Notes under the pieces: generated by a model
What the model saw: only the letters and a program-made list of their open reading frames with translations
Told to the model about the DNA's origin: nothing
The model's database searches: none
Part shown: one piece after another, positions 12,085 through 64,000 of the stretch
Numbering within the stretch: position 1 is the stretch's first letter
Layout of the letters: every line of letters starts with the position of its first letter
Translations under genes and position numbers: made by a program
From: Candidatus Latescibacterota bacterium
Lineage (GTDB): Bacteria > Krumholzibacteriota > Krumholzibacteriia > JACNKJ01
NCBI GenBank assembly: GCA_020633725.1
Contig: JACKDC010000005.1
Span: 172,135-236,134, forward strand
Length of the DNA: 64,000 bases
Direction: 5' to 3'

Positions 12085-14760
<2,676 letters not shown>

Positions 14761-14842: not shown

Positions 14843-14861
14843 AGGAATCGGACTGTTATCC

Positions 14862-45402: not shown

Positions 45403-45403
45403 C

Positions 45404-45958: not shown

Positions 45959-45965
45959 GAGGCCC

Positions 45966-47096
45966 ATGGCTCAGCGCGACTACTACGAGGTGCTCGGGGT
46001 TCCGAAGGACGCCGACGAGACGGCGATCCGCAAGGCCTACCGCAAGCTGGCCATGCAGTACCATCCCGATCGCAATCCCGACGACAAGAGCGCCGAGGAC
46101 AAGTTCAAGGAGGCCACCGAGGCCTACGAGGTGCTCAAGGACGCGCGCAAGCGTCAGGCCTACGATCAGTTCGGCCACGCGGGCGTCTCGGGGCAGGGGA
46201 TGGGCGGCGGCGGTCCCTTCGGCGGTCAGGGCATCGACATGGAGGAGGCCCTGCGCTCGTTCATGCGCGACTTCGGCTTCGAGTCCTTCTTCGGCGGGGG
46301 CGGCGGCCCGGGCCGCGCGCGCGGGGCGGGCGCCGATCGCGGCGGGCGCGACCTGCGCGTGCGCGTGCGCCTGACGCTGGAGGAGGCCGCGCAGGGCGTC
46401 GAGAAGCAGATCAAGATCAAGAAGAAGGTGACCTGCTCCACCTGCTCCGGCTCCGGGCAGCGCCCGGGCTCGCGCATGCAGCGCTGCGCCGAGTGCCAGG
46501 GCAGCGGCGAGATCCGGCGCGTGCAGCGCTCGATCCTGGGGCAGTTCGTGAACGTCTCCGTCTGCCCGCGCTGCCACGGCGAGGGATCGGTGATCGGCGA
46601 TCCCTGCGCCGACTGCCACGGCGAAGGGCGCGTGGACGGCGGTGACACCGTGCAGGTCTCGATCCCGCCGGGCGTCTCCACGGGCGACTACATCCCGCTG
46701 CGCGGCAAGGGTGAGGCCGGGTTGCGCGGCGGGCCGGCCGGGGACGTCATCGTGATGCTCGAGGTGGCCGAGCACGCGCTCTTCCAGCGGGTGCGGCAGG
46801 ATCTCTTCCTGGAGCTGCCCGTCACCTACAGCACGCTGGTGCTCGGCGGCAAGGTGGAGGTGCCCACGCTCGACGGCGCGGCCAAGCTCACCGTGCCCCC
46901 GGGCACGCAGAGCCATCAGCTCATGCGCCTGCGCGACAAGGGGCTGCCGCACCTGAACTCCCGCCGGCGGGGCGATCTCATCGTGCGCCTGGTCTGCTGG
47001 ACACCCGGGCGCACGGGCCGCGACGAGCAGAAGCTGCTCCAGGAGCTGGAGACGCTCGAGGCCGGCAAGCTGCCCGGCCCGCGCCGGCCCTCGTGA
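45966..47096 (+). CDS. dnaJ: Molecular chaperone DnaJ
   Basis: J domain (DYYEVLGV...YHPDRNP), G/F region and four CxxCxGxG zinc motifs. Confidence 0.95.
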   Translation: MAQRDYYEVLGVPKDADETAIRKAYRKLAMQYHPDRNPDDKSAEDKFKEATEAYEVLKDARKRQAYDQFGHAGVSGQGMGGGGPFGGQGIDMEEALRSFMRDFGFESFFGGGGGPGRARGAGADRGGRDLRVRVRLTLEEAAQGVEKQIKIKKKVTCSTCSGSGQRPGSRMQRCAECQGSGEIRRVQRSILGQFVNVSVCPRCHGEGSVIGDPCADCHGEGRVDGGDTVQVSIPPGVSTGDYIPLRGKGEAGLRGGPAGDVIVMLEVAEHALFQRVRQDLFLELPVTYSTLVLGGKVEVPTLDGAAKLTVPPGTQSHQLMRLRDKGLPHLNSRRRGDLIVRLVCWTPGRTGRDEQKLLQELETLEAGKLPGPRRPS

Positions 47097-47836
47097 GCGA
47101 GGCGCCGGTCCTGCTCTGGCCCGAGCTGGCGGGGCCGGGAACGCTCGTCCTCGACGGCCCCGCCCAGCACTACCTCTGCAACGTCCTGCGCCTGCGCGCC
47201 GGCGACGCCGTGGAGCTTCGCGACGGCCGCGGCGCGGCGGCGCGGGGACGTCTCACGGCGGTGGAACGGCGACGGGCCACGCTGGAGCTCGAGGCGCCGC
47301 AGGCGCTGCCCGTCCCGCCGGGGCCGCGTCTCCACCTGGCGATGCCGCTGCTCAAGGGGCGCCGGCTGGACTGGGCCCTCGAGAAGTGCACGGAGCTGGG
47401 CGTGAGCGATTTCCACCTCTACGTCGGCCGGCACGGCGTGGTGCGGCGGGACCGCGCGCCCGAGCGCTACGGGGAGATCCTGCGCGCGGCCTTCGCCCAG
47501 TGCCGGCGGCCGCTCCTGCCCGCCCTGGACGGCCCGGCGCCCTTCGCCGATCTGCTGTCCCGCGCCACGACGGAGGGCTGGCGCCAGGCCTGGGCCGACG
47601 AGCGCGGCGCGGGCCGCGGGCAGGCGCCCTTCGCGCTGGCCGACGGCGAGGACCTGCTCGCCTGGGTGGGGCCCGAGGGTGGCTTTTCGGCCGAGGAGCG
47701 GGCGGCGCTGGAGGCGGCGGCGTCCCTGCGCCTCGACCTCGGGGCCCAGCGCCTCCGCGCGGAAACCGCGGCGGTGGCCGCGACCTGCGCGCTTCTGCTG
47801 CCCCGCGGCGAGACAAAGCCGCCGGCGGCGCGTTGA
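47093..47836 (+). CDS. rsmE: 16S rRNA (uracil1498-N3)-methyltransferase
   Basis: PUA-like N-terminus, KG.R.DW.LEK.TELGV and GPEGGFS.EE. The GTG overlaps the dnaJ stop codon. Confidence 0.85.
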   Translation: MSEAPVLLWPELAGPGTLVLDGPAQHYLCNVLRLRAGDAVELRDGRGAAARGRLTAVERRRATLELEAPQALPVPPGPRLHLAMPLLKGRRLDWALEKCTELGVSDFHLYVGRHGVVRRDRAPERYGEILRAAFAQCRRPLLPALDGPAPFADLLSRATTEGWRQAWADERGAGRGQAPFALADGEDLLAWVGPEGGFSAEERAALEAAASLRLDLGAQRLRAETAAVAATCALLLPRGETKPPAAR

Positions 47837-47861
47837 CAGGGCGCCGAAGCGCGTCTATAAT
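47833..47861 (+). promoter_or_regulatory. Perfect-consensus sigma70 promoter TTGACA-N17-TATAAT
   Basis: Seen directly. The -35 hexamer overlaps the rsmE stop codon. It is followed by a ~55-nt AT-richer leader and a GGGAGGGG RBS before the ATG at 47921. Confidence 0.6.
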
Positions 47862-47920
47862 GCCTAAGTTTTTTATCTGCATCGTTTTCCAGTGGAAGCT
47901 TGAGCCGGTCAGGGAGGGGC

Positions 47921-48367
47921 ATGAGCCTTCAGCAGCAACTCGATGACGATCTGAAGACGGCCATGAAGGCCGGCGAGAAGGCGCGCGTCGGCGTCCTGCG
48001 CATGCTTCGCGCGGAGATGACGAACGCGCGCATCGAGCGCGGCCACGCGCTCGACGAGGCGGAGATCCTCGACGTCCTCACGCGCTACGCCCGCAAGCGC
48101 CGCGACGCCGCCGCCGAGTACGAGAAGGGCGGCAGGCAGGACCTCGTGGACAAGGAACTCGCGGAGGCGGACATCGTGCAGGGCTACCTGCCGCAGGCCC
48201 TGGGCGAGGGCGAGCTCCTCGAGCTCGTGGAGGCCGTGGTCCGCGACCTCGGCGCCGGCGGCATGCAGGACATGGGCCGCGTCATGAAGGAAACCCTCCA
48301 GCGCGCCGCAGGCCGGGCCGACGGCGCCGCGGTCAGCGCCCTGGTCAAGCGCCGGCTGGCCGGGTAG
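47921..48367 (+). CDS. yqeY: GatB/YqeY-domain protein
   Basis: L..DLK.AMKAGEK.R...LRML.A ... E..IV..YLP pattern. Confidence 0.8.
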   Translation: MSLQQQLDDDLKTAMKAGEKARVGVLRMLRAEMTNARIERGHALDEAEILDVLTRYARKRRDAAAEYEKGGRQDLVDKELAEADIVQGYLPQALGEGELLELVEAVVRDLGAGGMQDMGRVMKETLQRAAGRADGAAVSALVKRRLAG

Positions 48368-48372
48368 CCGGC

Positions 48373-48888
48373 ATGGGAGTTCATCTGCTGGTCATCGCCC
48401 TGGCGGCCACCCTGGGCCTGGGCCTCTATCACGGCTTTCGTGGCGGGCTGATCCGCAGCGCGTTCAAGCTGCTGGGTCTCGTGGCGGGCCTGCTCCTCGC
48501 GCGGCCGGTGGCGATCTGGGTGGCGCCGCAGCTGCCCGGCGCGCTGGAGTTCACCGGGAGCTGGATCCTGCTGGTCCTCGTCTGCTTCGTGGCGATCACG
48601 GCCGTCTTCGCCCTCGTGGGCTGGCTGCTGGCGAAGGCCATCGGCTGGACGCCGCTCGCCTGGGTCGACCGCCTCGGCGGCGCGGCGCTGGGGCTGGGCA
48701 TGGGCCTCGTCGTGGCCGGGGCGATCCTCTCGCTGCTGAACTCGCTGGGCATCGCGCAGGAGCTGGCGAACCAGGCGACGGGCTGGGAGGCGCAGTTCCT
48801 GGACACGATGATCGACGTCACCCCCGGCCTCTTCGAGCGCCTGCGCCAGGTGGTCGTGCCCGGCGGCGCGCCGCGAGGCGCGGTCTGA
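48373..48888 (+). CDS. cvpA: CvpA-family membrane protein
   Basis: Four hydrophobic helices and an N-terminal G.RGGLIRSAFKL motif. Confidence 0.7.
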   Translation: MGVHLLVIALAATLGLGLYHGFRGGLIRSAFKLLGLVAGLLLARPVAIWVAPQLPGALEFTGSWILLVLVCFVAITAVFALVGWLLAKAIGWTPLAWVDRLGGAALGLGMGLVVAGAILSLLNSLGIAQELANQATGWEAQFLDTMIDVTPGLFERLRQVVVPGGAPRGAV

Positions 48889-51335
48889 TGCCCTGGCTTC
48901 GCGACGCGCCGGCCCTGCGCTGCGGCGACGCGCCCCAGCGCCTCGAGTTCCCCGAGCTGCTCGAGGAACTCGCCGCGCGCGTGCGCTTTCCGCGCAGCGC
49001 GGAGGCGCTGCGGTCGCTCGCGCCCCTGACCGACAGCGCCGCCATCGAGGCGCGCCGCGAGCGGGTGGCGGCGTGGATCCGCCTGCTCGACGAGGGCCGC
49101 GAGCCCGAGCTGGCCGGCCTCGTCGACCTGGGGGCGGGCCTCGAGCGCGCCCGGCGTCCCGGGGCGCAGCTGCCCGGCGACGACCTCTGGACCCTGGCCC
49201 GGTGCCTGAACGCGCTCGTGCGCCTCGGGGACTTCCTCGCGGCCCAGCGCGAGCGTGCGCCGGTGCTGCACGGCGACTGGGGCAACCCGCCCGACCTGCG
49301 CGGCCTGGCCTCGGAGATCGAGCGCTGCGTCGACGAGGAGGGCGCCGTCCGCGACGGCGCCAGCCCCGCGCTCGCGCGCGTGCGCGCGCGCATCCGCGAG
49401 GGACGCGATCGCCTCCGCGGCACGCTGGACGCGCTGATCCGCGAGCGGCTGGCCGAGGGCGAGCGCGATCTGCGCCCGCGCCTGCGTTCGGGCCGTCTCG
49501 TCCTGCCCGTGCGCCGCGAGCAGCGGAGCCAGCTGCCGGGGATCGTCCACGACGCGTCGTCGAGCGGCAAGACGCTCTTCGTCGAGCCGCTCGAGACCGT
49601 CGAGCTGAACAACGCGCTCGCGGATCTGCTGGCCGAGGAGTCCGCGGAGTGCGCGCGCATCCTGCGCGCCCTGACCGCGCGCGTGGGCGCGTGGGTGGAT
49701 CCCATCCGCGAGCGCCTGGACGCCGCGCACCGCCTCGAGCTGCCGCTGGCCGCGGCGCGGCTCGCGCGCGAGCGGCGCTGGACCTGGGCCGAGTGGTCGC
49801 CAGCGGGCGAGGACCGTCTCGTGCTGAAGGCCGCGGTGCATCCGCTGCTGGCGCGCTACCTGCCCGCGGGACGCCGTCCGGTGCCCCTGGACCTCGACCT
49901 GGACGCCGCGAGCCGTCTGCTGCTCGTGACCGGCCCCAACACCGGCGGCAAGACGGTCATGCTCAAGACCCTCGGCCTCCTGGTGCTGATGAACCAGTGC
50001 GGCCTCCCCGTGCCCGCCGCCGAGGGCAGCCGGCTGCCGCTCTTCGGCAGCCTCTTCGCCGACATCGGCGACGAGCAGTCCCTGCGCGACTCGCACTCCA
50101 CCTTCAGCGCGCACCTCGCGCGGCTGGGCGACATGGCCGATGGCGCCGCTCCCGACGCACTCATCCTCGTGGACGAGATCGGCGATGGCACCGACCCGGA
50201 AGAGGGCGCGGCGCTGGCCCAGGCCCTGATGGCGCACTGGATCGGCCGCGGCGCGCGCGCGGTGGTGACCACGCACTTCGGCGTCCTCAAGGGCTTCGCC
50301 CAGGAGACGGACGGCGCGGCCAACGCCGCCATGGACTTCGATCCTCAGGCGCGGCAGCCGCTCTACACGCTGAGCCTCGGCATCCCCGGCAGCAGCCGCG
50401 CCATCGCCACGGCGCGCCGCCTGGGGATGAACCCCGAGGTGCTGGCCGAGGCGGAGCGCCTGCTGGGCGCCGAGGCGCTGAGCCTCGAGGCGCTGCTCGA
50501 GCGGCTCGAGCGGGAGACCCAGGCCGCCGCCGAGGCGCGCGCCGACGCCCAGGCCCTGCGCACGCGCTACGAGGGGATGGCGAGCGAGGTGGAGGAGCGG
50601 TTGCGTCACATCCGCGGCGAGGAGCGCGAGATCCTCGCCGAGACGCGCCGCGAGGCCGAGGATTTCCTCGCCGCCGCGCGCCGCGACTTCGAGCACGCCG
50701 TGAAGGCGCTGCGGGAGCGAGAGGCGGATCGCGAGAGCATCCGCGACGGCCACGAGACCCTCGAGCGGCTGGGCGCCGGGCTGCAGCGGCTGGAGCCCTC
50801 GCCGGCGCGGGCGCGCGCCGAGGCGCTGCCGCCGCTGGAGCACTGGCGGGCGGGCGACCGGGTGCGCCTGCGCGCCACCGGACAGACGGCCGAGATCCTC
50901 GAGGCCGCGGGCGCGGGACGTCTGCGCGTGTCCCTGCGCGGCCTGCCCCTGGTGTTGCCGCTCGCCGAACTGAGCCCACTGCCTCCCGGGGACGGCGGCC
51001 CGGCGGCCGGGCCCGCGGAGCGCGACGCGCTGGCGGGCGTGAGCTACCTCGCCGAGGCGCCCGACTCCTATCGTCTCGACCTGCGCGGCTACCGCGCGGA
51101 GGAGGCCGCGGAGGCGCTGGACGTCTTCCTCGACGGCGCCCAGCTCGCCGGTTTCCACGTGGTGGAGATCCTGCACGGCAAGGGCGAGGGCGTGCTGCGC
51201 GAGGAGGTGCGCCGGCGGCTGGCGGGCGACCGCCGCGTCGCCCACTTCGGCCTGGCGGATCAGAACCGCGGCGGGACGGGCGTGACCGTCGCCACGCTGG
51301 CGGGCGGAGAGCGCCGCGGAGGTGGGCATGCCTGA
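48888..51335 (+). CDS. mutS2: Endonuclease MutS2 (MutS ATPase + Smr domain)
   Basis: VTGPNTGGKTVMLKT, DEIG.GTDP, and a C-terminal Smr domain (LDLRG...LHGKGEGVLR). Confidence 0.9.
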   Translation: MPWLRDAPALRCGDAPQRLEFPELLEELAARVRFPRSAEALRSLAPLTDSAAIEARRERVAAWIRLLDEGREPELAGLVDLGAGLERARRPGAQLPGDDLWTLARCLNALVRLGDFLAAQRERAPVLHGDWGNPPDLRGLASEIERCVDEEGAVRDGASPALARVRARIREGRDRLRGTLDALIRERLAEGERDLRPRLRSGRLVLPVRREQRSQLPGIVHDASSSGKTLFVEPLETVELNNALADLLAEESAECARILRALTARVGAWVDPIRERLDAAHRLELPLAAARLARERRWTWAEWSPAGEDRLVLKAAVHPLLARYLPAGRRPVPLDLDLDAASRLLLVTGPNTGGKTVMLKTLGLLVLMNQCGLPVPAAEGSRLPLFGSLFADIGDEQSLRDSHSTFSAHLARLGDMADGAAPDALILVDEIGDGTDPEEGAALAQALMAHWIGRGARAVVTTHFGVLKGFAQETDGAANAAMDFDPQARQPLYTLSLGIPGSSRAIATARRLGMNPEVLAEAERLLGAEALSLEALLERLERETQAAAEARADAQALRTRYEGMASEVEERLRHIRGEEREILAETRREAEDFLAAARRDFEHAVKALREREADRESIRDGHETLERLGAGLQRLEPSPARARAEALPPLEHWRAGDRVRLRATGQTAEILEAAGAGRLRVSLRGLPLVLPLAELSPLPPGDGGPAAGPAERDALAGVSYLAEAPDSYRLDLRGYRAEEAAEALDVFLDGAQLAGFHVVEILHGKGEGVLREEVRRRLAGDRRVAHFGLADQNRGGTGVTVATLAGGERRGGGHA

Positions 51336-53193
51336 ACCCGTCCGCGGCGGTGACGACTTCAAGGAGCGCGTGCGCGAGGCCACGGACATCGTGGAGCTGG
51401 TGGGGCAGTACCTCAAGCTTCGCCGCGTGGGCTCGAACTGGCAGGGGCTCTGCCCCTTCCACCACGAGAACAGCCCGAGCTTCAACGTCAACCAGGAGCG
51501 GCAGAACTTCTACTGCTTCGGCTGCAACAAGGGCGGGGACGTCTTCAGCTTCGTCATGGAGCAGGAGGGGCTGCCCTTTCGCGAGGCGCTGGAATTCCTG
51601 GCCCAGCGGGCGGGCATCCCGATCGAGCGGCGCGGGGGCGGAGACGGCGAGCGGAGCCGCGCGGACCTCTACCACCGCATCAACGAGTCCAGCGCCGCGT
51701 TCTACGCGCAGCAGCTGGCGAAGAGCGGCGCGGCGGCGCGCGCGCGCGACTACCTGGCGCGGCGCGACGTGAGCGCCGAGAGCGTGGAGGCCTTCGGGCT
51801 CGGCTTTGCGGGGCAGTCCTGGCGGGATCTGCATCAGCAGCTCAGCCGCCAGGGCTTCGCGCCCGAGGCCTGCGAGGCGCTGGGCCTCATCCGCCGCAAG
51901 GCGTCGAGTCCAGGCTACTACGACGCCTTCCGCAATCGCATCATGTTCCCCGTGCGCTCCGTGGCCGGGCGCGTGGTGGGCTTCGGCGCGCGCGTCCTCG
52001 ACGACTCCCTGCCCAAGTACGTGAACTCCGCGGACAGTCCCGTCTACACGAAGAAGGCGATCCTCTACGGCCTCGATCGCGCCTGGCGCGAGATCCGGCG
52101 CAGCAAGCTGGCCGTGCTGGTGGAGGGCTACTTCGACGTCATCAGCTTGCACCAGGCGGGCGTGCCCCAGGCCGTGGCCGCCTGCGGCACGGCCTTCAGC
52201 AGCGATCAGGCGAAGCTGCTGGGCCGCTACACCGAGCGCGTCTGCGTGGTGACCGACGGCGACGCGGCCGGCCAGAAGGCCGCCGTCCGGGCCGCGGGCG
52301 TGCTGCTCACGGTGGGCCTGAGGCCCAGCGTGCTGGCCATGCCGCAGGGCGAGGATCCCGACAGCCTGGTGCGCGCCGAGGGCGGCGACGCCTTCCGCGA
52401 GCGTCTGCGCCGTGCGCCGGACTACTTCGGCTTCATGCGCGAGCTGGTGGCCGGCCGTGGCGATCGCCCGGCCGAGCGCGAGCGGGCGGTGCGCCGCATC
52501 CTGGAGGACCTCACCGCCTTCCCCGAGGGCGACCTGCATCTGGAGAGCCTGCTGGAGGAGCTGTCGCAGGCCTTCGGCGTGGACGGCGCCGTGCTGCGCC
52601 GCGCGCTGCGCGAGACGCGCCGCGTGGCGGACGGCCGGCGCGGCCCCCGCCGACGGCCCGAGGCCGAGCCCGAGCCCGGGCAGGCGGCGCCGCGGCGCAA
52701 GGGGGATGACGCGCCCGTCGCCGACGCCGAGGCGGCCAGCCAGGAGCGCCGCGAGAAGCTGATGCTCGCGGTTCTCCTCCAGCGGGAGGCCCAGCGGGGC
52801 GAGGTCTTCGCGCTCCTGCGGCCGGAGCACTTCGCCGACCCCCTGCGGGCCCGGATCTTCTCCGTGCTCTCCGCCCTGGGCCGGGTCCCCGCCAGCGGCG
52901 AGCTGGGGGAGCTCTTCCCGGATCCGGCCGCCGCGCGCAGCGTGCACGAGCTGACTTTTTTGCGCCTGCCGGCCGAAGGGGGCGGGGACTGGGTGCGCGC
53001 GGCCGCATTGCGCCTTAAATTGAAACGTATGCTCGACCTCAACCGGGACTTCCAGGGCCGCGTCCAGGCCATGGAGCTGGGGGGGGAGGAGGTCTCGGCG
53101 GACCTCCTCGCGGAGTGGCGTCACGTGGGAGAGGCCATTCGCGGCCTGCGGGCCGACATCGACCGACTTCTCGAAGCACAGAAAGGGTCATGA
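51328..53193 (+). CDS. dnaG: DNA primase
   Basis: Zinc finger CPFHHENSPSFNV....FYCFGCNKGGD and TOPRIM (VEGYFDV, VTDGDAAG). ATG at 51328 preceded by GGAGGTG. Confidence 0.9.
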   Translation: MPEPVRGGDDFKERVREATDIVELVGQYLKLRRVGSNWQGLCPFHHENSPSFNVNQERQNFYCFGCNKGGDVFSFVMEQEGLPFREALEFLAQRAGIPIERRGGGDGERSRADLYHRINESSAAFYAQQLAKSGAAARARDYLARRDVSAESVEAFGLGFAGQSWRDLHQQLSRQGFAPEACEALGLIRRKASSPGYYDAFRNRIMFPVRSVAGRVVGFGARVLDDSLPKYVNSADSPVYTKKAILYGLDRAWREIRRSKLAVLVEGYFDVISLHQAGVPQAVAACGTAFSSDQAKLLGRYTERVCVVTDGDAAGQKAAVRAAGVLLTVGLRPSVLAMPQGEDPDSLVRAEGGDAFRERLRRAPDYFGFMRELVAGRGDRPAERERAVRRILEDLTAFPEGDLHLESLLEELSQAFGVDGAVLRRALRETRRVADGRRGPRRRPEAEPEPGQAAPRRKGDDAPVADAEAASQERREKLMLAVLLQREAQRGEVFALLRPEHFADPLRARIFSVLSALGRVPASGELGELFPDPAAARSVHELTFLRLPAEGGGDWVRAAALRLKLKRMLDLNRDFQGRVQAMELGGEEVSADLLAEWRHVGEAIRGLRADIDRLLEAQKGS

Positions 53194-53196
53194 AGC

Positions 53197-54951
<1,755 letters not shown>

Positions 54952-55072: not shown

Positions 55073-55735
55073 CTAGTAGAGCGCCTTGACCTCGCTCCAG
55101 GACGACGACTCGGTGGCGACGGACGTGTGCCCGACCTCCCACTGGCCGTTGGACATCTGCGCCTGGATGCCGTTGCCGAGGTCGTCGACCATCAGGCCCT
55201 GGAAGGTGCCGTAGGCCTCTTCGGCGTTGATCGCGTCGATGGTGATGTAGCCGGACGTGCTGACGAAGATGTGCGCGGCGTCGATCGTGGCCAGCCAGGC
55301 TTCCCAGTCGAGGCTGAACGGATCGTCGGGGAAGGTCACGTTCACGGCGTCATCCACGAAGGCCATGCCGACCGTGAAGCCCACGGGATCGAAGAAGTAG
55401 TCGCCGGGGGCGAGCGGCGCGTGGCTCGAGATGAAGAGCAGAACGCCGTCGATGCTGCCGTCGGGGTTGTAGAAGCCGGCAACGCTGAGCAGCGTGTAGA
55501 TGCCGCCGACGTCGACGACGACGCCGTAGCAGCCCTCCGCGCCGTCGGGGAAGTCGGGATCGCTGGGATCGATCGCGCCCTGGGCCTCGAAGATGCCCTC
55601 GTACGGCCCGGTGGGGTACTCGGTGTACTCGAAGTAGGTCCGGCCGGTGTCGAACAGGTAGTCCTGCGCGAGCGCGGGCTGGACGAGGACGAGGCCGCTG
55701 AGAAGAAGCGCGGCGAGAATAGCTCTGGACTTCAT
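55073..55735 (-). CDS. Secreted acidic protein, function unknown
   Basis: Signal peptide MKSRAILAALLLSGLVLVQPALA, D/G/F-rich mature part, ends in SWSEVKALY. Confidence 0.6.
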   Translation of the reverse strand: MKSRAILAALLLSGLVLVQPALAQDYLFDTGRTYFEYTEYPTGPYEGIFEAQGAIDPSDPDFPDGAEGCYGVVVDVGGIYTLLSVAGFYNPDGSIDGVLLFISSHAPLAPGDYFFDPVGFTVGMAFVDDAVNVTFPDDPFSLDWEAWLATIDAAHIFVSTSGYITIDAINAEEAYGTFQGLMVDDLGNGIQAQMSNGQWEVGHTSVATESSSWSEVKALY

Positions 55736-55746
55736 ATGGACACTCC

Positions 55747-55799
55747 GCTGCTTGCTGAAGACGTGGTGATGGACGGGCTGCTTGCTCTGTCGTGCAAGC
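55747..55799. repeat. 10-bp direct repeat GCTGCTTGCT x2 spaced exactly 30 bp, plus an inverted GCAAGC copy
   Basis: Copies at 55747-55756 and 55777-55786, with the inverted half at 55794-55799. They lie in the 272-bp divergent control region. Confidence 0.35.
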
Positions 55800-55897
55800 T
55801 TCGGCTAATCATATCACAGGTCGGGCGGCGATGGAACGGCAGTCTGACATGCGGGGCGCCCCGAGAGCGCAACTGGCGGAAACATTCCCGGCGAATC

Positions 55898-55936
55898 TTG
55901 ATTTTTTGGTCGCATACTCGGTATTTGTACTATACT
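55898..55936 (+). promoter_or_regulatory. AT-rich candidate promoter region for the 56008 operon (TTGATT-N18-TATTTG, also TATACT)
   Basis: This is the only AT-rich stretch in the gap. The hexamer assignment is ambiguous. Confidence 0.25.
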
Positions 55937-56007
55937 TCACGGGACTGCCCTGGACAGCCTGCCCTGGCCCGCGAGGCCGGGGGTGGCAACGCACCGAGCG
56001 AACAACG

Positions 56008-58218
56008 ATGCCCCGTCCTCCCCGATGCGCCCTTTCCAGCCCCAGCGAGGCCAGTCGCCGCGCCGCGCGCGCCGCGCTGGTCCTGCTGCTGGCGCTCGGC
56101 GTCCTCCTGGGTCAGGGGGGGACGGCCCGGGCCGCGGACGGCCGCCTGGGCTACGAGGAGCGGCACCAGGACGGCGGCACGGCCGGCGTGGACTACCAGC
56201 TGCAGATCATCACGCGTGGCGCCCAGGCCCAGCAGTCGATGCCGCTCTGGGGGCCGCTCAGCCTCCGCGTCGAGGCGCAGGTCCAGGACGAGGAGACCCA
56301 GAGCCGGGTCGGGGACGTCTCCAGCGCCTGGGATCGGCTCACGCAGCGCGGCATCGCGTCGCTGCGCTTCGGCGGGTCCTGGCTGCGGGCCGACCTGCAC
56401 GCCAGCGGCCGTCGCCGCGAGGAGTCGCTGCATCCCCAGCCCCTCCTGACCTCCGATGCGGGCGAACTGGGTGGCTGGGCCAACCTGCGCCCGGCCTCCT
56501 GGCTGACCTTCCAGGGAAGCTGGCTCGACAGCCGGAACTGGAACGAGCGCAGCGAGGGGCCCGAGGTGGAGACCCACGAGTCCCTGCGCTCCGCCGGAGC
56601 CGAGACCGCGCTGGGCCCGGTGGGCACCCTGCGCTACGCCTACGCGCGCAACGCCACGGAGAACCTGACGCGCTCCAGCCTCGGCGTGAACTCCAGCCAC
56701 CTCCTCGCCTACGAGGGCGTCTACGGGCTCCAGGGCAGTCGCGGGCGCCTGTCCGTGAGCGCGCGCACGCGCCGCTTCAACCAGCACACGCGGCAGGACC
56801 CCTACGATGGACGCCTCCTGCTCGAACCCCTGGTGGTCGGCGTGCGCATCGACGACAGCCCCGAGATCGAGGACCCCCTGGAGGATCCGCTCACGTCCGT
56901 GCCCGGGCTGAGCGACCTGGACCGCCGCGCCGGCACGAGCGTCGATCTGGGTGACGACGCGCCCGTGGGCCTGCAGATCGGCGGCGACTACCGCAACCTG
57001 CAGATGGACTTCGGCCGGCCCTTCCCGCTCAGCGAGGCGGTGCTCTACGTGGATCGGCGCCCCCTGGCGCCGGAGCTGCTGCAGTGGCGCGTCTACATCG
57101 CGGACGATCCCCAGGGCCAGCTCTGGGAGGAACTGACGGGCGTCACGGCCGTCTACCGCGATCTCGACAGCGGACTGCAGGGCTGGGAGTTCAGCATCGA
57201 GCCGCCGATGGCCACCCGCTACGTCAAGTTCGTGGACGTGAAGCTGGGGCCGGTGGGCGCCGTGCTCCGCGTCACCGAGCTCGAGGTCTACACGCCGGAC
57301 TCGACGCCCGGCCGCGAAACCCGCGACCAGGCGGACAGCCAGCGCCTGTTCACGGCGCTGGACTACGGCCTCGCGCGGAATCTGAGCGCCCGCGTGGACG
57401 TGACGCTCCGCCACCGCGGCGACCACGGCGACACCCCCGACCTCGACGATCGCGCGCAGGGCGCGGGCCTCAGCTACACGCGCGGCGCCTGGTCGGCCAG
57501 CGCCCGCGCGGAGCTGCACCGCGTGGAGAGCGGCGGCCGGCTCGACAGCGACGTCACCACGGCCGCCTTCGGCCTTCGGCGCCGCCTGGGCGACGCGAGC
57601 AGAGCCGGCGTCCACTACGACCGCGTGGACGATCGCGGCGACGGCGGCGACCGCCGCACCCGCGCGCTCAGCGTCAACGCCGACCTGCGCCTCGCGCCCG
57701 CCCTGCGCGTTTCGCAGCGCTTCAGCTACGGCTGGCTCGACGACCGCACGGCCGCGTTGAGCTCGCGCTCCTTCACGTCCCAGAGCGTCTTGCGGAGCGT
57801 GCCGGCGCGCTGGCTCTACGTGGACCTCACGCGAACCGATCGCTGGGTCCGGCGGGAGGCGGGCGCGGGCTTCACGCCCTTCAACGACAGCTCGCTCAGC
57901 CTGGGCCTGACGCCCGTTCCCCTCGTCAGCCTGCGCAGCACGGTGACCTACCAGGTGCGCGACAAGGGCGAGTGGCTCGTGCGGCACACGCTCACGTGGT
58001 CGCCGCTGCCCGGCGGGGATCTCGCCGTGCATTTGAACGCCAACCAGTTCTCTGATACACGGGTGGACACCCGACAGGCCGGGGCGGGCGCGTCCGTCAC
58101 CTGGGAGCCGCGCCCGCGGCTGCTCCTGGAGGGCGGCGTGGACGCCCAGCGCACGCGGCGCGCGCAGGGCAGCAGCTCGCCGCTGAACACCTTCGTGAAG
58201 GGCAGTCTGGTCTTCTAG
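56008..58218 (+). CDS. Large outer-membrane beta-barrel protein with inserted discoidin (F5/8 type C)-like domain
   Basis: Signal peptide, strand-rich halves, C-terminal ...FVKGSLVF (terminal Phe). Residues ~300-428 (nt 56905-57291) show NLQMDFG...LQWRVYIADDP.G.LWEE...RYVKF...RVTELEVY. Confidence 0.7.
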   Translation: MPRPPRCALSSPSEASRRAARAALVLLLALGVLLGQGGTARAADGRLGYEERHQDGGTAGVDYQLQIITRGAQAQQSMPLWGPLSLRVEAQVQDEETQSRVGDVSSAWDRLTQRGIASLRFGGSWLRADLHASGRRREESLHPQPLLTSDAGELGGWANLRPASWLTFQGSWLDSRNWNERSEGPEVETHESLRSAGAETALGPVGTLRYAYARNATENLTRSSLGVNSSHLLAYEGVYGLQGSRGRLSVSARTRRFNQHTRQDPYDGRLLLEPLVVGVRIDDSPEIEDPLEDPLTSVPGLSDLDRRAGTSVDLGDDAPVGLQIGGDYRNLQMDFGRPFPLSEAVLYVDRRPLAPELLQWRVYIADDPQGQLWEELTGVTAVYRDLDSGLQGWEFSIEPPMATRYVKFVDVKLGPVGAVLRVTELEVYTPDSTPGRETRDQADSQRLFTALDYGLARNLSARVDVTLRHRGDHGDTPDLDDRAQGAGLSYTRGAWSASARAELHRVESGGRLDSDVTTAAFGLRRRLGDASRAGVHYDRVDDRGDGGDRRTRALSVNADLRLAPALRVSQRFSYGWLDDRTAALSSRSFTSQSVLRSVPARWLYVDLTRTDRWVRREAGAGFTPFNDSSLSLGLTPVPLVSLRSTVTYQVRDKGEWLVRHTLTWSPLPGGDLAVHLNANQFSDTRVDTRQAGAGASVTWEPRPRLLLEGGVDAQRTRRAQGSSSPLNTFVKGSLVF

Positions 58219-58269
58219 CTGCGGCCGCGGCGGAACGGCCGGCGGGGCGACAACAAGGAGAGAGCTACG

Positions 58270-58839
58270 ATGCTTGGATTGCGGCGGATGGGTCTCCTGC
58301 TCGCGCTCGGACTCGCGCTGTCGGCGGGCTGCGCGCCGACGGTGAAGAGCTTCCTCCACCCGGACGTGGACCTGGGCTACGTGCGGCGCGTGGCGCTGCT
58401 CCCCTTCAGCAATCTCAGCGGCGACGAGTTCGCGGACGAGCGCATCACCTCGCTCTTCGTCACCCGGCTGCTCAGCGCGAACGTGGTGGAGGTGGTGGAG
58501 GCCGGCGCGGTGCGCGAGGCCATGACCCGGATGAACGTCAGCGCGGGGATGACCCTCAGCCCCGAGCAGATCGTCGCGCTGGGCAAGGCCCTCGCCGTGG
58601 ACGCCCTCTTCGGCGGCACGGTGGAGGAGTACGGTCCCGTGCGCGAGCATCGCGAGACGCAGAACCAGGTCACCGCGTCCTTCACCCTGAGCGAGACCCA
58701 GTCCGGCACGCTGGTCTGGCGCGCCGAGGTGCACGAGGGCGGCGGGTCCTTCTGGCGGCGCCTCTTCGGCCTGGGCGGCCGCTCCCTGCACGACGTTTCC
58801 GCCGACGCCGTGGACCGCGCCCTGGGGACGCTCTTTTGA
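58270..58839 (+). CDS. Lipoprotein with LpoB/PelC/DUF799-like motif
   Basis: Lipobox LSAGC, then VALLPFSNLSGDE...ERITSLFVTRLL. AAGGAG RBS. Confidence 0.6.
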   Translation: MLGLRRMGLLLALGLALSAGCAPTVKSFLHPDVDLGYVRRVALLPFSNLSGDEFADERITSLFVTRLLSANVVEVVEAGAVREAMTRMNVSAGMTLSPEQIVALGKALAVDALFGGTVEEYGPVREHRETQNQVTASFTLSETQSGTLVWRAEVHEGGGSFWRRLFGLGGRSLHDVSADAVDRALGTLF

Positions 58840-59927
58840 CGTTCCGCCCTCGCATCCTGCCGCTGCTTGCGGCGCTGGTCCTGGCGGGACCGACCGGACG
58901 CGCGGCCGCCGCGCCGCTGCCGCCGTCGGCCCTGCTGCTCTTCCTGAGCGCGAGCGAGGGCGTGCGGTCCCCGGCCGCGCCGGCGGCGCTGCGGGACGAG
59001 GCGAGCCGGGCCCTGGTCGCGGCCTTCGCCAGCCCCGGGCGTCGCGTGTGCGCGGGCGCGGCGGTGGAGCCGATCCTCCGCGCCCATCGCGTGCGCGCGG
59101 CCACGGACGTCGACGCCGCGGTGCTCGCCGCCCTCGCGGATCGCTGCGGCGCCGAGCGCGCGCTGGTGCTGCGGCTGGTCCTCGCGCCCGGTGAGCTGTT
59201 CCTGGTTCTGGAGTCCATCGACACGGCCGACGGCCGTCTCGCTCAGGTCGGCGTGGTCGAGCGCCCGCTGGAGTCCGGCGCCGACTGGCGCCGCGCGCTG
59301 GGCGACGCCGTCCTCGAACTCGCGGCGGCCGCCGACCCCGAGCCGCTCCCGCGCGCGGACGCCCGCGCCCTGCTGACACTGCCCGCGGTCACCGCCGGCG
59401 GGGCGGTGGAGGGGCCCGCCCTGCTCGAGGCCTGCCTGCTTCGTCGGCTGCTGGCGTCCGGCCGCTGGCTGCTGCCCGCGCCGTCGCTGCTCCTCGGCGA
59501 GCTGCGCGCGGCGGGCACGCACCCGGCGCACCTGGGCGACGGCGATCGCCGCGCGCTGGGCGAGGCCCACGGCGGCGCGCCCCTGCTCCGTCCCTTCCTG
59601 AGCGAGTACGTCACGCCTGACCGCTCCGTGGGCTTCGCCGTCACCGACGCGGCGGACGGCGCCGAGGACGCGCCCCCGCGCCTGGGCGCGCGCGCTGCGC
59701 AGCGGCCGTGCTACGCCTCCCTCGAGCTGGTGGACAGCGACAGCGGCGTGCTGCGCCGGGTCGTCGAGGATTACCTGCCCGCCGCCGAGCTGCGCGGCAG
59801 CTTCGGCCGGCCCCGCAACATCACCTGGCTCACGCGGCTCGACTCCCTCGCCGAGTCGCTGGTGAGCGCCCTGGACCACGACGCGGCGGCCCTGGCCGTC
59901 GCCCCCTCATCCGGAGAATCGCAATGA
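58836..59927 (+). CDS. Secreted protein, function unknown (two weak LpoB-like halves)
   Basis: The TTG start overlaps the upstream stop codon. Signal peptide MTFRPRILPLLAALVLAGPTGRAAA. Segments ALLLFLSASEG... and ALLTLPAVTAGG... . Confidence 0.5.
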   Translation: MTFRPRILPLLAALVLAGPTGRAAAAPLPPSALLLFLSASEGVRSPAAPAALRDEASRALVAAFASPGRRVCAGAAVEPILRAHRVRAATDVDAAVLAALADRCGAERALVLRLVLAPGELFLVLESIDTADGRLAQVGVVERPLESGADWRRALGDAVLELAAAADPEPLPRADARALLTLPAVTAGGAVEGPALLEACLLRRLLASGRWLLPAPSLLLGELRAAGTHPAHLGDGDRRALGEAHGGAPLLRPFLSEYVTPDRSVGFAVTDAADGAEDAPPRLGARAAQRPCYASLELVDSDSGVLRRVVEDYLPAAELRGSFGRPRNITWLTRLDSLAESLVSALDHDAAALAVAPSSGESQ

Positions 59928-61639
59928 CCTGCCGACGTCTCGCGCCGCTCGCCGCGGCGCTCGCCTTCGCCATGCCCTTCGCGCCGGGGGCCGCCCGCGG
60001 CGGCGCGCCAGCGGACGACGCCGCGCTCGCGCTGGTCAACGGCGAGACCGTGACCCTCGCCGACCTGGACGCCGAACTGGGCAGCCGCCCCCTGGACCCC
60101 GCGGCCGCCCCGCCCGCGGTCGACATCCTCGAGCGGCTCGTCGAGAACCGCCTGCTCGAGCAGGAGGGCTATCGCATGGGCGCGGAGGAGGAGCCCGCCG
60201 TCCGCAATCAGGTGCTCGACCTGCGCCGGATACGCGCGGTGGTGGCGCTGCTCGATTCGGTGTCGGCGCAGTCGGCGAGCAGCGCCGCGGCGGCGCTGGA
60301 CAGCGCCATGAACAAGGAGACCACCTTCCGGCACGTGGCGCACATCCTCGTCCCCGACGAGGCGAGCGCGCGCGGCCTGCTCGACAGCCTGGCGGCGGGG
60401 GCCGATTTCGCGGGCCTGGCGCGGCGCCACTCCACCGACGGCAACGCGCCCAAGGGCGGCGACCTGGGCTGGGCGCCCGCCGGCGCCTACGTGCCGGCCT
60501 TCGAGGCGGCCACCGGTTCGCTGGCGCCCGGCGAGGTGGCGGGACCCATCGAAACCGAGTTCGGCTGGCACCTGATCACGCTGCTCGAGACGCGCACGGA
60601 GTCCGCCGGGCAGTCGCCCGCGATGCGCGACGCCATGCACAAGCGCCTGGAGCGCGAGGAGCGCATGGCCGCCGTGCGGCGCTTCGTCGGAGCGCTGAAG
60701 GACGAGTACGGCGTGACCGTCAACGACTCGCTGCTGGCGACCCTGGACTTCGGCTCCACCGATCCCGCGGTGCTGGACCGCTACAAGGACAGCGACGCCG
60801 TCCTGGCGACGCTGCCCACCGGGCGGCTCACCGTGGGGGCGCTGAACCGTCAGATCCTCTTCAAGTACTTCCACGGGCTCTCGGGCCGCGACAACACGGA
60901 CGCCATGCGCGACGAGGTCTTTCGCCAGTGGCTGGACGAGGCCCTGCTCAGCTACGAGGCGCGCCAGCGGGGCTTCGACCACAGTCCCGCCGTGGAAGTG
61001 GAGGCCCGTCAGCTGGAGCGTGCGCTGATTCGCGAGGAGGTGCTCAAGGCCGTCCTGATGGGCGTGCAGGAGCCCGCCGACGCCGACGTGGCCGCCTACT
61101 ACGCGGCCAATGCCCAGCGCTTCGCGGATCCGCCCCGCGTCAAGCTCCGCAGCGTGGGCTTCGGCGACGAAGCCGCCGCCCGCCGCTTCCTCGCGCAGCT
61201 GGAGTCCGGCGCGCAGTTCGGCTGGCTCAGCGCGCGCGATCCCTCGGTGCGCGACGCGGACGACCCCCTGGGCGCGGACTGGCTGGAGCCGTCGGCGCTC
61301 GGCCTCGACGCCGCGCAGCTCGCGCGCGGACAGCGCGTGGGACCGCTGCCCTACGGCGAGGGCGACGGCGGCTGGGCCGTCGGCGAGCTGCAGCTCGTGG
61401 ACCGTCCCGCGCCCCCGCCGCTGACGGCCTGCCGCGGCGCGGTGAGCGCGGCGCTGCTGCGGGAGCGGCAGCACGAGGCCGTCAACGAGGCCATCTCCCG
61501 CTTGAAGGACGCCGCCACGGTGACCTACGCGCCCGGCGCCGAGGCGCGGATCCGCGCGCGGCTCGCGGCGCTCACGACCCCCGACGAGACCAGGTCTGCC
61601 GCGGCTGGCGCCGCCGGCGGCGCTGGCGGAGGACACTGA
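59924..61639 (+). CDS. Periplasmic peptidyl-prolyl isomerase, SurA/PpiD-like (parvulin domain)
   Basis: SurA-N-like LALVNGE.VT..DLD plus parvulin HILV...A..L...L..GADFA.LAR.HS.D....KGGDLGW...G..VP.FE.A...L..GE..GP..T.FGWHLI. The ATG overlaps the upstream stop codon. Confidence 0.85.
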   Translation: MTCRRLAPLAAALAFAMPFAPGAARGGAPADDAALALVNGETVTLADLDAELGSRPLDPAAAPPAVDILERLVENRLLEQEGYRMGAEEEPAVRNQVLDLRRIRAVVALLDSVSAQSASSAAAALDSAMNKETTFRHVAHILVPDEASARGLLDSLAAGADFAGLARRHSTDGNAPKGGDLGWAPAGAYVPAFEAATGSLAPGEVAGPIETEFGWHLITLLETRTESAGQSPAMRDAMHKRLEREERMAAVRRFVGALKDEYGVTVNDSLLATLDFGSTDPAVLDRYKDSDAVLATLPTGRLTVGALNRQILFKYFHGLSGRDNTDAMRDEVFRQWLDEALLSYEARQRGFDHSPAVEVEARQLERALIREEVLKAVLMGVQEPADADVAAYYAANAQRFADPPRVKLRSVGFGDEAAARRFLAQLESGAQFGWLSARDPSVRDADDPLGADWLEPSALGLDAAQLARGQRVGPLPYGEGDGGWAVGELQLVDRPAPPPLTACRGAVSAALLRERQHEAVNEAISRLKDAATVTYAPGAEARIRARLAALTTPDETRSAAAGAAGGAGGGH

Positions 61640-64000
61640 TGCATCGCCTGCTCCCCGCGCACGGCCGCGCGCAAAAGCTCCTCGCGCCCCTCGCCCTCGC
61701 GCTGACGCTGTTCGCGGCCGCGCAGCCGGCGCTGGCCGCGCGGGGCGGTCTGGGCTCGAAGTCCTGCCTCGACTGTCACGACAACCTGAAGAGCGAGACC
61801 CGCCGCAGCGACGCCCACGCCCCCTTCGCCAAGGCCGACTGCGAGGCCTGCCACAAGCCGCACGGCATCATGGGCGGTCTCGTCCTGAAGGCGGAGATCA
61901 ACAGCCTCTGCCTCGAGTGCCACGAGGACGTCGCCGCCCAGCGCGAGCTGCCGGTGCTCCACGGCCCGCTGGACGGCGGCAAGTGCACCGACTGCCACGA
62001 TCCCCACGGCAGCGGCGCGCCGATGCTGCTGCCCGGCAAGGGCGCCGAGGGCTGCTACGCCTGCCACGATCGCGCGGCGTTCACGCGCCCGGTGGTGCAC
62101 GAGCCGCTGCGCAAGCGGGGCTGCAACGCCTGCCACGCGAGCCACGGCAGCGCCGAGCCCGGCCTGCTCGCGAAGCCGGCCACCGCGCTCTGCCTCGACT
62201 GTCACGCGGGCGGCGCCAAGCTGACGACCGCCCATGCGGGCGTGGACGTCGCCGCGGCGGGCGCCTGCGTGGACTGCCACGATCCGCACAGCGCGGACAC
62301 GACGTCGCTGCTGCGCCGCTCGATCCACGCCCCCGTGGCGGACATGGACTGCGCCAGCTGCCACACGGTGGACGCGGCCGGCCAGGTCACGCTGACCGAG
62401 ACGCCCGCCGCCACCTGCGCCATGTGCCACGACGAGGCCGAGCGCAAGCCGGCGGTGGAGCACCCGGCCTTCAGCGACGGCGACTGCATCGACTGCCACT
62501 CGCCCCACGGCAGCAACGAGCCCGGGCTGCTCAAGGCGCCCCAGGCGCAGCTCTGCTTCACCTGTCACGAGGCCGGCGACTTCAAGCGCGCGGACGGCCA
62601 TCCCCCGGCGGTGAAGGGCCAGTGCAGCGCTTGCCACGACGCGCACGGCGCCGCCGAGCCGCAGCTGCTGCGCCAGCCGCAGCGCGAGCTCTGCCGGTCC
62701 TGCCACCAGGAGGCCTCGATCACGCCCGCGGCGGGACAGCACGAGCACACGCCCGCGGCCAAGCGCGACTGCACGGTCTGTCACGCGCCGCACAGCGCGG
62801 CCCAGCCCGGTCTGCTCCGCGAGCCCGCCGGCGAGCTCTGCCTGAGTTGCCACCTCAAGGTGAAGCTGCTCAACGCGTCGGAGCACCCGCACGGCGTCGT
62901 GGCCGCAGGTGACTGCCTGAGCTGCCACGAGCCCCACGTCGCCGCGCGCGCCGATCTGCTCAAGGACGCGCCGGGGACGCTCTGCCTCGGCTGCCACGAG
63001 GACTTCGGCCGCGCGCCCCAGGGCGGCTCGGTGCATCCGCCGGCCGAGGCCGGCGACTGCCTCGACTGCCACCTGCCCCACGGCGGCGAGCGCAAGGGCA
63101 TGCTCACGGAGACGCCGGAGGCGCTCTGCCTCGGCTGTCACGACGCGGGCGCGGACCTGCCGCACCCCCACGCGCCCGTGGCCGAGGGCCGCTGCGCGGA
63201 GTGCCACGACGCGCACCGCTCGCCCGCGAAGCACCTGCTCGCGGCGCCGTCGCCGCTGCTCTGCACGGGCTGCCACGCGGACGTGGTGAGCGCCGAGGGC
63301 GCGACGTCGGTGCACCCGCCCTCCCAGGACGACTGTCTCGTCTGCCACGAGCCCCACGGCGGGCAGCGGGCGGGTTTCCTGGTGGAGCCGGCGACGGCGC
63401 TCTGCTTCCAGTGCCACGATGGCCAGGGCGCCGGCTTCCGCGGCGCGCATCTCGCGCTGGACGACCCGTCGGGCGTCGACTGCCTCGGCTGCCACGAGCC
63501 GCACCGCGGTCTGCAGACCGCGCTGCTGCACGCCAACGAGCATCCGCCCTTCGCGGACCGCGACTGCGGGGTCTGCCACAGCCAGGGCTCGACGTCCGTC
63601 GCCGCCGGCGTCTGCCTCGACTGCCACGACGACCCGGCCGCGGGACCGAACGTCAAGGTGGTGCATGCCCCGGTGGAGGCCGGCGAGTGCCAGGACTGCC
63701 ACAACCCGCACGCCGCGAACGGCGAGCACCTCTTCCGCGGCCCGGTGGGGGAGACCTGCCTCGGCTGCCACGACGAGGGCGCGCTCTACCCCGACCGCGC
63801 GCTCGCCCATGCGCCCGTGCGCGACGGCCAGTGCGAGCGCTGCCACGACGGCCACGCCTCCGCCCAGCCCGCCCTGCTGCGCAAGGCGCCCGGCACGCTC
63901 TGCCTCAGCTGCCACCCGGCCATCGGCGACGCCTCGCGGGGCAAGGCCCACGCGCCCGTCGCCGACGGGGACTGCGCGGCTTGCCACGACAGCCACGGCA
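61639..64000 (+). CDS. Giant multihaem c-type cytochrome (32 CxxCH motifs visible), 3' end outside the window
   Basis: ATG at 61639 overlaps the PPIase stop codon (TGATG) and is preceded by GGAGGA. Signal peptide LALALTLFAAAQPALA. My translation gives 787 codons with no stop and 32 CxxCH motifs. This ORF is not in the supplied track because no stop codon is reached. Confidence 0.9.
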   Translation, partial: MHRLLPAHGRAQKLLAPLALALTLFAAAQPALAARGGLGSKSCLDCHDNLKSETRRSDAHAPFAKADCEACHKPHGIMGGLVLKAEINSLCLECHEDVAAQRELPVLHGPLDGGKCTDCHDPHGSGAPMLLPGKGAEGCYACHDRAAFTRPVVHEPLRKRGCNACHASHGSAEPGLLAKPATALCLDCHAGGAKLTTAHAGVDVAAAGACVDCHDPHSADTTSLLRRSIHAPVADMDCASCHTVDAAGQVTLTETPAATCAMCHDEAERKPAVEHPAFSDGDCIDCHSPHGSNEPGLLKAPQAQLCFTCHEAGDFKRADGHPPAVKGQCSACHDAHGAAEPQLLRQPQRELCRSCHQEASITPAAGQHEHTPAAKRDCTVCHAPHSAAQPGLLREPAGELCLSCHLKVKLLNASEHPHGVVAAGDCLSCHEPHVAARADLLKDAPGTLCLGCHEDFGRAPQGGSVHPPAEAGDCLDCHLPHGGERKGMLTETPEALCLGCHDAGADLPHPHAPVAEGRCAECHDAHRSPAKHLLAAPSPLLCTGCHADVVSAEGATSVHPPSQDDCLVCHEPHGGQRAGFLVEPATALCFQCHDGQGAGFRGAHLALDDPSGVDCLGCHEPHRGLQTALLHANEHPPFADRDCGVCHSQGSTSVAAGVCLDCHDDPAAGPNVKVVHAPVEAGECQDCHNPHAANGEHLFRGPVGETCLGCHDEGALYPDRALAHAPVRDGQCERCHDGHASAQPALLRKAPGTLCLSCHPAIGDASRGKAHAPVADGDCAACHDSHG
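61765..63987 (+). repeat. Tandem coding modules (~48 aa / ~145 bp) each carrying two CxxCH motifs (doubled-CXXCH / cytochrome c3-c7-like)
   Basis: Recurrent LC(L/F)xCH ... H.P(V/F)..G.C..CH.PH(G/S)....LL. At DNA level the string ctctgcctcg(a/g)ctg(c/t)cacga recurs. Confidence 0.75.

Follow-up and report, generated by a model that had tools for sequence, protein, structure and literature searches.

A compact osc-like locus of Krumholzibacteria, the probable counterpart of the Geobacter machinery for OmcS-type cytochrome filaments

The window analyzed here, a 64,000-nucleotide stretch of contig JACKDC010000005.1 from a Krumholzibacteriota bacterium, ends in five co-directional genes (g1 to g5, 56008-64000, + strand). 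Judged by sequence, they most probably belong to a Krumholzibacteria form of the osc (omcS-companion) system, the machine with which Geobacter makes extracellular OmcS-type cytochrome filaments. We put the probability of this reading at roughly 0.8. A preliminary description of the same DNA had proposed an undescribed envelope-spanning module for extracellular electron transfer. Its role in electron transfer across the envelope is supported, whereas its novelty is not: every gene has its orthologue among the components of the Geobacter osc/omcS system, and a homologue of OmcS is encoded 2.1 kb past the window end. On that orthology, the locus is best read as the described nanowire biogenesis system rather than an undescribed conduit. 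It is a member, with a compact architecture, of a system described in another phylum, and no new kind of system.

In Geobacter sulfurreducens, genetic work on the osc operon is cited as assigning folding to OscH, secretion to OscE, OscF and OscG, and filament morphology to the β-propeller protein OscD (Shen et al. 2025, Cell Chem Biol 32:239). Papers citing this study identify OscC as GSU2501, an OmcS-like hexahaem cytochrome, and see in the barrel and lipoproteins a channel that secretes the OmcS filament subunit, not a cytochrome sheath. As far as this literature is quoted, OscI is GSU2495, a 26-haem cytochrome of ~70 kDa, and OscJ is GSU2494, also a cytochrome; an 'eight-gene block' (GSU2500-2493) is stated always to accompany a GSU2501-like gene, and a porin-like mounting of the filament is discussed. 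The osc machinery is called widespread by Shen et al. (2025), as cited, and OmcS genes were noted earlier in a Krumholzibacteria metagenome-assembled genome (MAG) by FeGenie.

Gene order and extension of the locus

The window ends within g5. Looked up by exact sequence, g4 occurs on 13 contigs of several metagenomes, and same-organism contigs (Candidatus Krumholzibacteriia MAG) carry the locus past the window end. Contig L002 coincides with the last 8108 bp of the window, from 55893 on, apart from 8 mismatches. Extension of the contig, proposed in the preliminary description, recovered the full g5 cytochrome together with NHL propeller and OmcS-like genes. Downstream of g5 come a GC-rich hairpin, visible by eye although a terminator scan found none, and a 245-bp spacer. 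Two more genes follow, encoding a 375-aa NHL propeller protein and then a 367-aa hexahaem cytochrome (L002 10227-11330), and after these lie tRNA-Met and housekeeping genes.

The spacer holds a sigma-70-like site, TTGACT-18-TAACAT (L002 9013-9042, window-equivalent ~64905-64934). It is the sole sigma-70-like match in 12 kb, where 0.1 would be expected by chance. As this promoter-like site lies in the spacer before the NHL/OmcS-like pair, the sequence suggests that the filament subunit is transcribed separately from g1-g5. A permissive Rfam scan of L002 1-12000 returned tRNA-Met only and no riboswitch like those upstream of Geobacter cytochrome genes.

The loci of Geotalea daltonii and G. sulfurreducens encode an OmcS-like protein and a propeller, then proteins of 739, 188, 372 and 580 aa and a 26-haem protein of 657 aa. 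The first four genes of the window encode, in the same order, proteins of 736, 189, 363 and 571 aa. Likewise, the NHL protein matches the one encoded upstream of omcS (BLASTP, 1e-21) and the corresponding NHL profile (8.6e-45).

A scan with an OscF alignment, one genome per species, yielded 76 osc loci, from which all osc profiles used here were built. These loci span Acidobacteriota, Nitrospirota, Thermodesulfobacteriota, Myxococcota, Armatimonadota and other phyla. Their order is remarkably uniform: NHL, OmcS-like, OscD, E, F, G, H, a 26-haem and a 16-haem cytochrome, NHL and sometimes another OmcS-like gene. An OmcS-like gene is present in 46 of the 47 loci with enough upstream sequence; among the 50 with enough downstream sequence, 45 carry the peptidyl-prolyl isomerase (PPIase) and 47 the giant cytochromes.

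Four further contigs from Krumholzibacteria and Eisenbacteria keep the order E, F, G, H, IJ, NHL, OmcS-like, with barrel identity ranging from 56% down to 33%. Gene order, which the preliminary description had singled out as a check, is thus conserved within the lineage, and a similar block recurs in the 76 loci. In two of these four contigs, a GSU2502-like spermine-synthase/TPR protein is encoded as well, as is a second OmcS-like cytochrome; a search for a GSU2502-like gene in the window found none. In L090 (1-9908) and L088 (5498-9724), genes for a cytochrome b (Ni_hydr_CYTB), NapC/NirT-like and other multihaem cytochromes adjoin the cluster, along with a second OmcS-like gene and the GSU2502-like spermine-synthase/TPR membrane protein. 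The extra electron-transfer genes are possible inner-membrane feeders of the system.

The outer-membrane barrel

The first gene, g1 (56008-58218, +), encodes an OscE-like outer-membrane β-barrel of 736 aa with a signal peptide and the C-terminus ...GSLVF. It matches a profile of 54 OscE orthologues at E 1.9e-18, and the g1 and OscE families align over 674 collinear columns (hhalign, 99.9%, E 3e-36). With BLASTP, similarity to Geobacter OscE (2e-6 and 1e-5) is restricted to the region of an insert at aa ~282-433 (56851-57306, +), a discoidin/galactose-binding-like β-sandwich that is the best-conserved part of the protein relative to Geobacter OscE.

A discoidin-like insert had been proposed before. 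A β-rich insert is indeed present, whereas its match to the Pfam family F5_F8_type_C is sub-threshold (E 0.018). The match of F5_F8_type_C_2 to G. sulfurreducens OscE (4.7e-5) is also of the sub-threshold class. As such matches occur both here and in Geobacter OscE, in the most conserved part of the barrel, the insert is a feature of the OscE family, possibly an usher-like plug. The insert and the PelC-like lipoproteins are not specific to this lineage, both being conserved in OscE, OscF and OscG of Geobacter.

AlphaFold2, run on an alignment of 18 sequences, gave a confident barrel (mean pLDDT 86.6). Manual counting of DSSP elements indicates ~30 membrane strands, and in the predicted secondary structure a β-rich insert of 140-150 residues separates strand 12 from strand 13. 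Given a periplasmic N-terminus, the parity of the strands in the model would place the insert on the periplasmic side and the longer loops of the second half of the barrel outside the cell. Foldseek retrieved only generic large barrels (22-26 strands) at TM 0.2-0.4, with PapC at rank 29.

A word-indexed protein search with g1 returned 20 relatives, all from Krumholzibacteria or Eisenbacteria; the Geobacter loci were therefore reached through OmcS. HMMER with the barrel profile against 1.84 billion representative proteins found 547 relatives, 346 of them below 1e-10. Among the 150 relatives listed, most full-length ones have ~650-760 aa and match end to end. By these searches, the OscE-type barrels form a small, specialized family.

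OscF-, OscG- and OscH-like proteins

After a 51-nt gap (58219-58269) follows g2 (58270-58839, +), encoding a 189-aa lipoprotein with the lipobox LSAGC and the motif VALLPFSNLSG. It matches G. sulfurreducens OscF over the full length (BLASTP, 1e-37, 37% identity) and the OscF profile at E 6.6e-47, and the lipobox Cys is invariant in the family. The earlier assignment to LpoB/PelC-like lipoproteins is borne out: g2 exceeds the Pfam LpoB cutoff (23.1 against 22.3 bits), also gives a weak GNA1162-like match, and its family matches the PDB structures of GNA1162 (7e-6), PelC (9h80, 2e-5) and 5t11/5t10/5t0z (1e-3 to 2e-3). In the Pel system, PelC reportedly assembles into a dodecameric ring beneath the PelB barrel.

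That g2 is homologous to PelC and GNA1162, that the barrel has a discoidin-like insert, and that glycosylation genes and a GSU2502-like gene are found near some clusters could together be taken to indicate a Pel- or curli-like exopolymer exporter, in which a barrel with a carbohydrate-binding domain and a PelC-like ring merely neighbours unrelated cytochrome genes. We consider this highly improbable. The locus holds no glycosyltransferase or polymerase genes, the barrel gene cluster is linked almost absolutely to OmcS-like and giant cytochrome genes across phyla, and the genes are joined to those for the PPIase and the cytochrome by overlapping junctions.

The third gene, g3 (58836-59927, +), starts with a TTG inside the TTGA it shares with g2, a 4-nt overlap kept in orthologous loci. 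It encodes a 363-aa periplasmic protein with a signal peptide, for which no Pfam or NCBIfam family was matched. Directly following OscF, it has the cluster position and length of OscG (~370-390 aa). It matches the OscG profile at 2.8e-4, its orthologues in L087 and L088 do so at 4e-7 and 4e-8, and the two families align over 256 collinear columns (hhalign, 97.4%, E 1e-11).

Joined to g3 by an ATGA junction, g4 (59924-61639, +) encodes a 571-aa OscH-like parvulin PPIase/chaperone of the SurA type. The OscH profile matches it at 1.8e-56 (positions 46-557 of 565) and Geotalea OscH at 4e-19 over 488 aa (BLASTP). The reading as a SurA-like PPIase stands, SurA being its best PDB match (E 2e-26) and Pfam Rotamase/Rotamase_3 matching at E 1e-16 to 1e-17. 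For the proposed SurA-like N-terminus, Pfam SurA_N has no match in g4, although weak ones occur in its orthologues.

The 42-haem cytochrome

After a TGATG junction, g5 begins with a signal peptide and an OscI-like part of ~26 haems (61639-63588, +), followed by the start of an OscJ-like part of 16 haems (63607-64000, +), where the window end cuts the open reading frame (ORF; its end is at window-equivalent 64743). The 787 residues in the window contain exactly 32 CXXCH motifs, in agreement with the at least 32 haems reported previously; the motifs are 22-28 residues apart, with one spacing of 16. The full protein, read on L002, has 1034 aa, 42 CXXCH, 84 Cys and 95 His. Each haem thus corresponds to ~24 residues, and the mass with haems is ~130 kDa.

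Residues 20-649 match the profile of 26-haem OscI (3.8e-166) and residues 657-1030 that of 16-haem OscJ (2.7e-88). As both profiles match in tandem and 26 + 16 = 42 haems, g5 is, by sequence comparison, OscI fused to OscJ. BLASTP against the Geotalea 26-haem protein gives 8e-124, Pfam assigns Paired_CXXCH_1, and a lipobox is absent. Membership of the MtrA/DmsE or GSU2203 decahaem families was considered and rejected: the high NCBIfam scores sum seven separate repeat stretches of the 42-haem protein.

In three of the four further lineage contigs the fused protein has 1032-1040 aa and 41-42 haems; in L089 its sequence is divided between two overlapping ORFs, of 899 aa (34 CXXCH) and 168 aa (7 CXXCH). 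Only one of the 76 loci, from a Nitrospirota MAG (L042, MFD00008.bin.1.129), shares the fusion. There, positions 13581-16748 encode a fused OscI-OscJ of 1055 aa and 42 haems, the best match of g5 (E 2e-208), followed by NHL and OmcS-like genes. This could be an independent fusion or the result of horizontal transfer.

The preliminary description favoured a model in which the barrel sheathes a very long multihaem cytochrome, as MtrB sheathes MtrA. The barrel gene is linked with giant cytochrome genes in nearly every locus, MtrB gives the best Foldseek TM-score for the barrel model (6r2q_B, TMq 0.37, 6% identity), and ~30 strands are more than the 26 of MtrB. A sheathed cytochrome is also compatible with a nanowire, as it could anchor the filament. 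As an account of the locus we nevertheless regard the sheath as quite unlikely. In sequence the barrel is not homologous to MtrB/PioB or the Pcc porins, and a weak Porin_4 match (20 bits, below the cutoff) is all that g1 gives with Pfam and NCBIfam; the cytochrome has 42 haems and fits the MtrA/DmsE models merely as separate repeat stretches; and no lipoprotein surface cytochrome is encoded, g5 and the OmcS-like protein being devoid of a lipobox. These same features uphold the earlier remark that the layout is unlike Mtr and Pcc. Furthermore, an OmcS-family subunit accompanies the barrel in all but one of the evaluable loci, most lineages split the giant cytochrome into proteins of 26 and 16 haems, and Geobacter genetics, as cited, assign OscE, OscF and OscG to OmcS secretion.

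One bolder version combines the sheath with the nanowire: the 42-haem OscI-OscJ would be more than a periplasmic shuttle and would thread the ~30-strand OscE barrel past the PelC-like ring, anchoring and charging an OmcS-like filament. This is speculative, and we give it only an outside chance. If true, the porin-cytochrome and nanowire models would be two halves of one machine, which would answer how cytochrome nanowires are anchored and fed electrons. Loss of OscD and fusion of OscI and OscJ would then be hallmarks of a minimal system, sufficient in itself, in Krumholzibacteriota, Eisenbacteria, Latescibacterota and Gemmatimonadota, all of them uncultivated phyla.

The OmcS-like subunit

Over its full length, the 367-aa cytochrome is homologous to OmcS (PDB 6EF8/6NEF, E 3.2e-52). 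Similarity extends from the N-terminus of the mature protein (FHDGGVAECAGCHTMHNS, against FHSGGVAECEGCHTMHNS in OmcS) to the C-terminal LCNKCH motif, and the OmcS-family profile matches at E 7e-93. In an alignment of 10 sequences, including OmcS, OmcT, OscC and four orthologues, the six CXXCH motifs and His2, 16, 110, 147, 247, 257 and 335 are invariant, whereas the non-ligand histidines of OmcS are not conserved. The six motifs and seven histidines are likewise kept in five orthologues from Krumholzibacteria and Eisenbacteria. His16 is reportedly the ligand that bridges neighbouring OmcS subunits in the filament. Databases contain an identical protein from Candidatus Krumholzibacteriia MAGs under the name 'cytochrome c3 family protein'.

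In MAGs of the Fibrobacterota-Chlorobiota-Bacteroidota (FCB) superphylum, subunit identity is 63-90% over more than 100 clusters, against 31-56% for the barrel over the same range. Conservation so far above that of the barrel is as expected for a tightly packed polymer. Short OmcS-like proteins of ~365-375 aa, 65-75% identical to the 367-aa cytochrome, were also found in Latescibacterota, Gemmatimonas and unclassified MAGs (P0125, P0276 and P0281), labelled 'hypothetical' or 'cytochrome c3 family'. These sequences point to a large FCB-group clade of compact OmcS homologues.

Several points weigh against a filament system. The 367-aa protein is about equally similar to OmcS, OmcT and OscC/GSU2501 (1e-63 to 1e-70). 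Filaments have been demonstrated for OmcS alone, according to a paper citing Shen et al. (2025), and specialists caution there against transferring function by homology. OscD is present in 44 of 47 canonical loci, yet searches for it gave no match in the window, in L001-L003 or in the Krumholzibacteria/Eisenbacteria loci (L087-L090). With BLASTP, g3 has no match to Geobacter OscG, which leaves the single-sequence link weak, and it lacks the lipobox that Geobacter OscG carries. To our knowledge, roles for OscI and OscJ were not established in the 2025 Geobacter study.

Some of these points would equally suit an OmcS-like protein that forms no filament here and serves instead, as a monomer or oligomer, as a cytochrome of the surface or periplasm in the manner of OmcT or OscC/GSU2501, OscE-H simply exporting it to the surface. 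Its even similarity to the three Geobacter proteins, the absence of OscD, the stress that the literature, as cited, lays on filament formation not being readable from homology, and a subunit shortened by two loop deletions all fit this explanation. We think it unlikely, because all haem ligands are kept, the bridging His16 included, and because the steep difference in conservation between subunit and barrel fits a packed polymer.

Proposed mechanism and significance

The scheme for an osc-type filament machine starts from what was observed here: orthology of the seven genes, targeting signals, the barrel model and conservation of the haem ligands. The hexahaem OmcS-like subunit, encoded with the NHL propeller behind its own promoter-like site, would leave the cytoplasm through Sec and receive its haems in the periplasm, where the SurA-like PPIase g4 (OscH) would act as its chaperone. 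It would then cross the outer membrane through a channel formed by the ~30-strand barrel g1 (OscE), with the PelC-like g2 and g3 on the periplasmic face, and polymerize head-to-tail by inter-subunit histidine-haem ligation. The 42-haem periplasmic g5 would carry electrons across the periplasm to the filament base. By analogy with Geobacter, we infer that the roles in folding (OscH) and secretion (OscE/F/G) hold in this organism too; the ring arrangement of g2 and g3, and g5 as supplier of electrons to the filament, are likewise presumed.

By this analysis, Krumholzibacteria and Eisenbacteria have a complete gene set for OmcS-type nanowires, and closely related short subunits are found in Latescibacterota and Gemmatimonas MAGs as well. 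These lineages of sediment and soil are uncultivated, and their proteins bear only the annotations 'cytochrome c3 family' or 'hypothetical'. The finding supports long-range extracellular electron transfer by cytochrome filaments well beyond the Desulfuromonadia. Moreover, the compact variant, with seven genes, no OscD and one fused 42-haem protein, may suit heterologous reconstitution and studies of giant cytochromes.

Flanking regions and other features of the window

The coordinates of the five genes, the gap after g1 and the three overlapping junctions agree with the preliminary description, as does the lower-GC control region upstream. This intergenic region (55736-56007, no strand assigned), a presumed promoter/leader, is 272 bp long and has 60.3% GC against 74.9% for 56008-64000. 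Rfam gave nothing in its 55893-56007 part, scanned on L002, which begins at 55893. Haem maturation genes were not seen within the 64-kb window.

A 220-aa secreted protein without a Pfam family is encoded at 55073-55735 (-), between rpoD and the operon; its gene is present in contigs of this organism and not at the same place in L087. Further upstream, the housekeeping run at 44596-54951 (hrcA, grpE, dnaJ, rsmE, yqeY, to dnaG and rpoD) is syntenic with positions 1-9849 of L087, from another Krumholzibacteria MAG. In both organisms the osc-like block sits between rpoD and tRNA-Met/Zn-ribbon/RNase H/recJ/relA. Flanked by the same housekeeping genes in the two, it is a stable chromosomal feature and not an island.

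At the other end of the window, 47-4117, 4114-6012 and 16427-18460 (-) encode a C25 gingipain-like peptidase of 1356 aa, a protein of 632 aa and an M1 peptidase, each with a FlgD_ig or weak Por_Secre_tail domain at its end. They look like type IX secretion cargo, which fits the earlier remark on a lineage bearing this secretion system. A 942-aa TPR-CHAT protein (6032-8860) is followed by small overlapping genes at 8857-9444 and 9437-10114 that resemble, by position, a sigma/anti-sigma pair.

Comparison with known systems

MtrCAB and the Geobacter Pcc/Ext conduits share with this locus an outer-membrane barrel encoded with periplasmic multihaem cytochromes, and, for the barrel model, the best TM-score is that with MtrB. 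They differ in that the barrels are not homologous, that ~30 strands are predicted against 26 and 42 haems against 8-12, and that here a lipoprotein surface cytochrome is absent and the gene set also includes PelC-like proteins, a PPIase and a filament subunit.

As in PelB-PelC export, a PelC-like lipoprotein gene adjoins the barrel gene. Chaperone-usher pili (PapC/FimD) offer two further parallels, a β-sandwich inserted in the barrel like the usher plug and a periplasmic chaperone dedicated to a polymerizing subunit, although ring stoichiometry and plug function here would follow only by inference. In contrast to both systems, the cargo is a haem protein, and the barrel has no sequence homology to ushers.

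With the OmcS nanowire (PDB 6EF8/6NEF), the 367-aa protein has in common the six CXXCH motifs, every distal histidine and the motifs at both termini. It is ~34% identical, and deletions in two loops, at OmcS residues ~54-75 and ~150-185, make it ~60 aa shorter.

The likeness is greatest to the osc loci of Geobacter (GSU2505-GSU2493) and Geotalea daltonii. Orthologues of E, F, G, H, I and J occur in the same order with near-identical lengths and overlapping junctions, the barrel has its discoidin-like insert, the lipoproteins are PelC-like, and an NHL gene is paired with the gene for an OmcS-family hexahaem cytochrome. What sets the present locus apart is its compactness and its host: OscI and OscJ are fused into one 42-haem protein, OscD and a downstream OscK-type NHL gene are missing, g3 carries no lipobox and the subunit is the shorter one. 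The NHL-OmcS pair lies 3' of the block and not 5', although it is of the 'upstream' type by sequence, and the organism belongs to the FCB group, not to the Desulfuromonadia.

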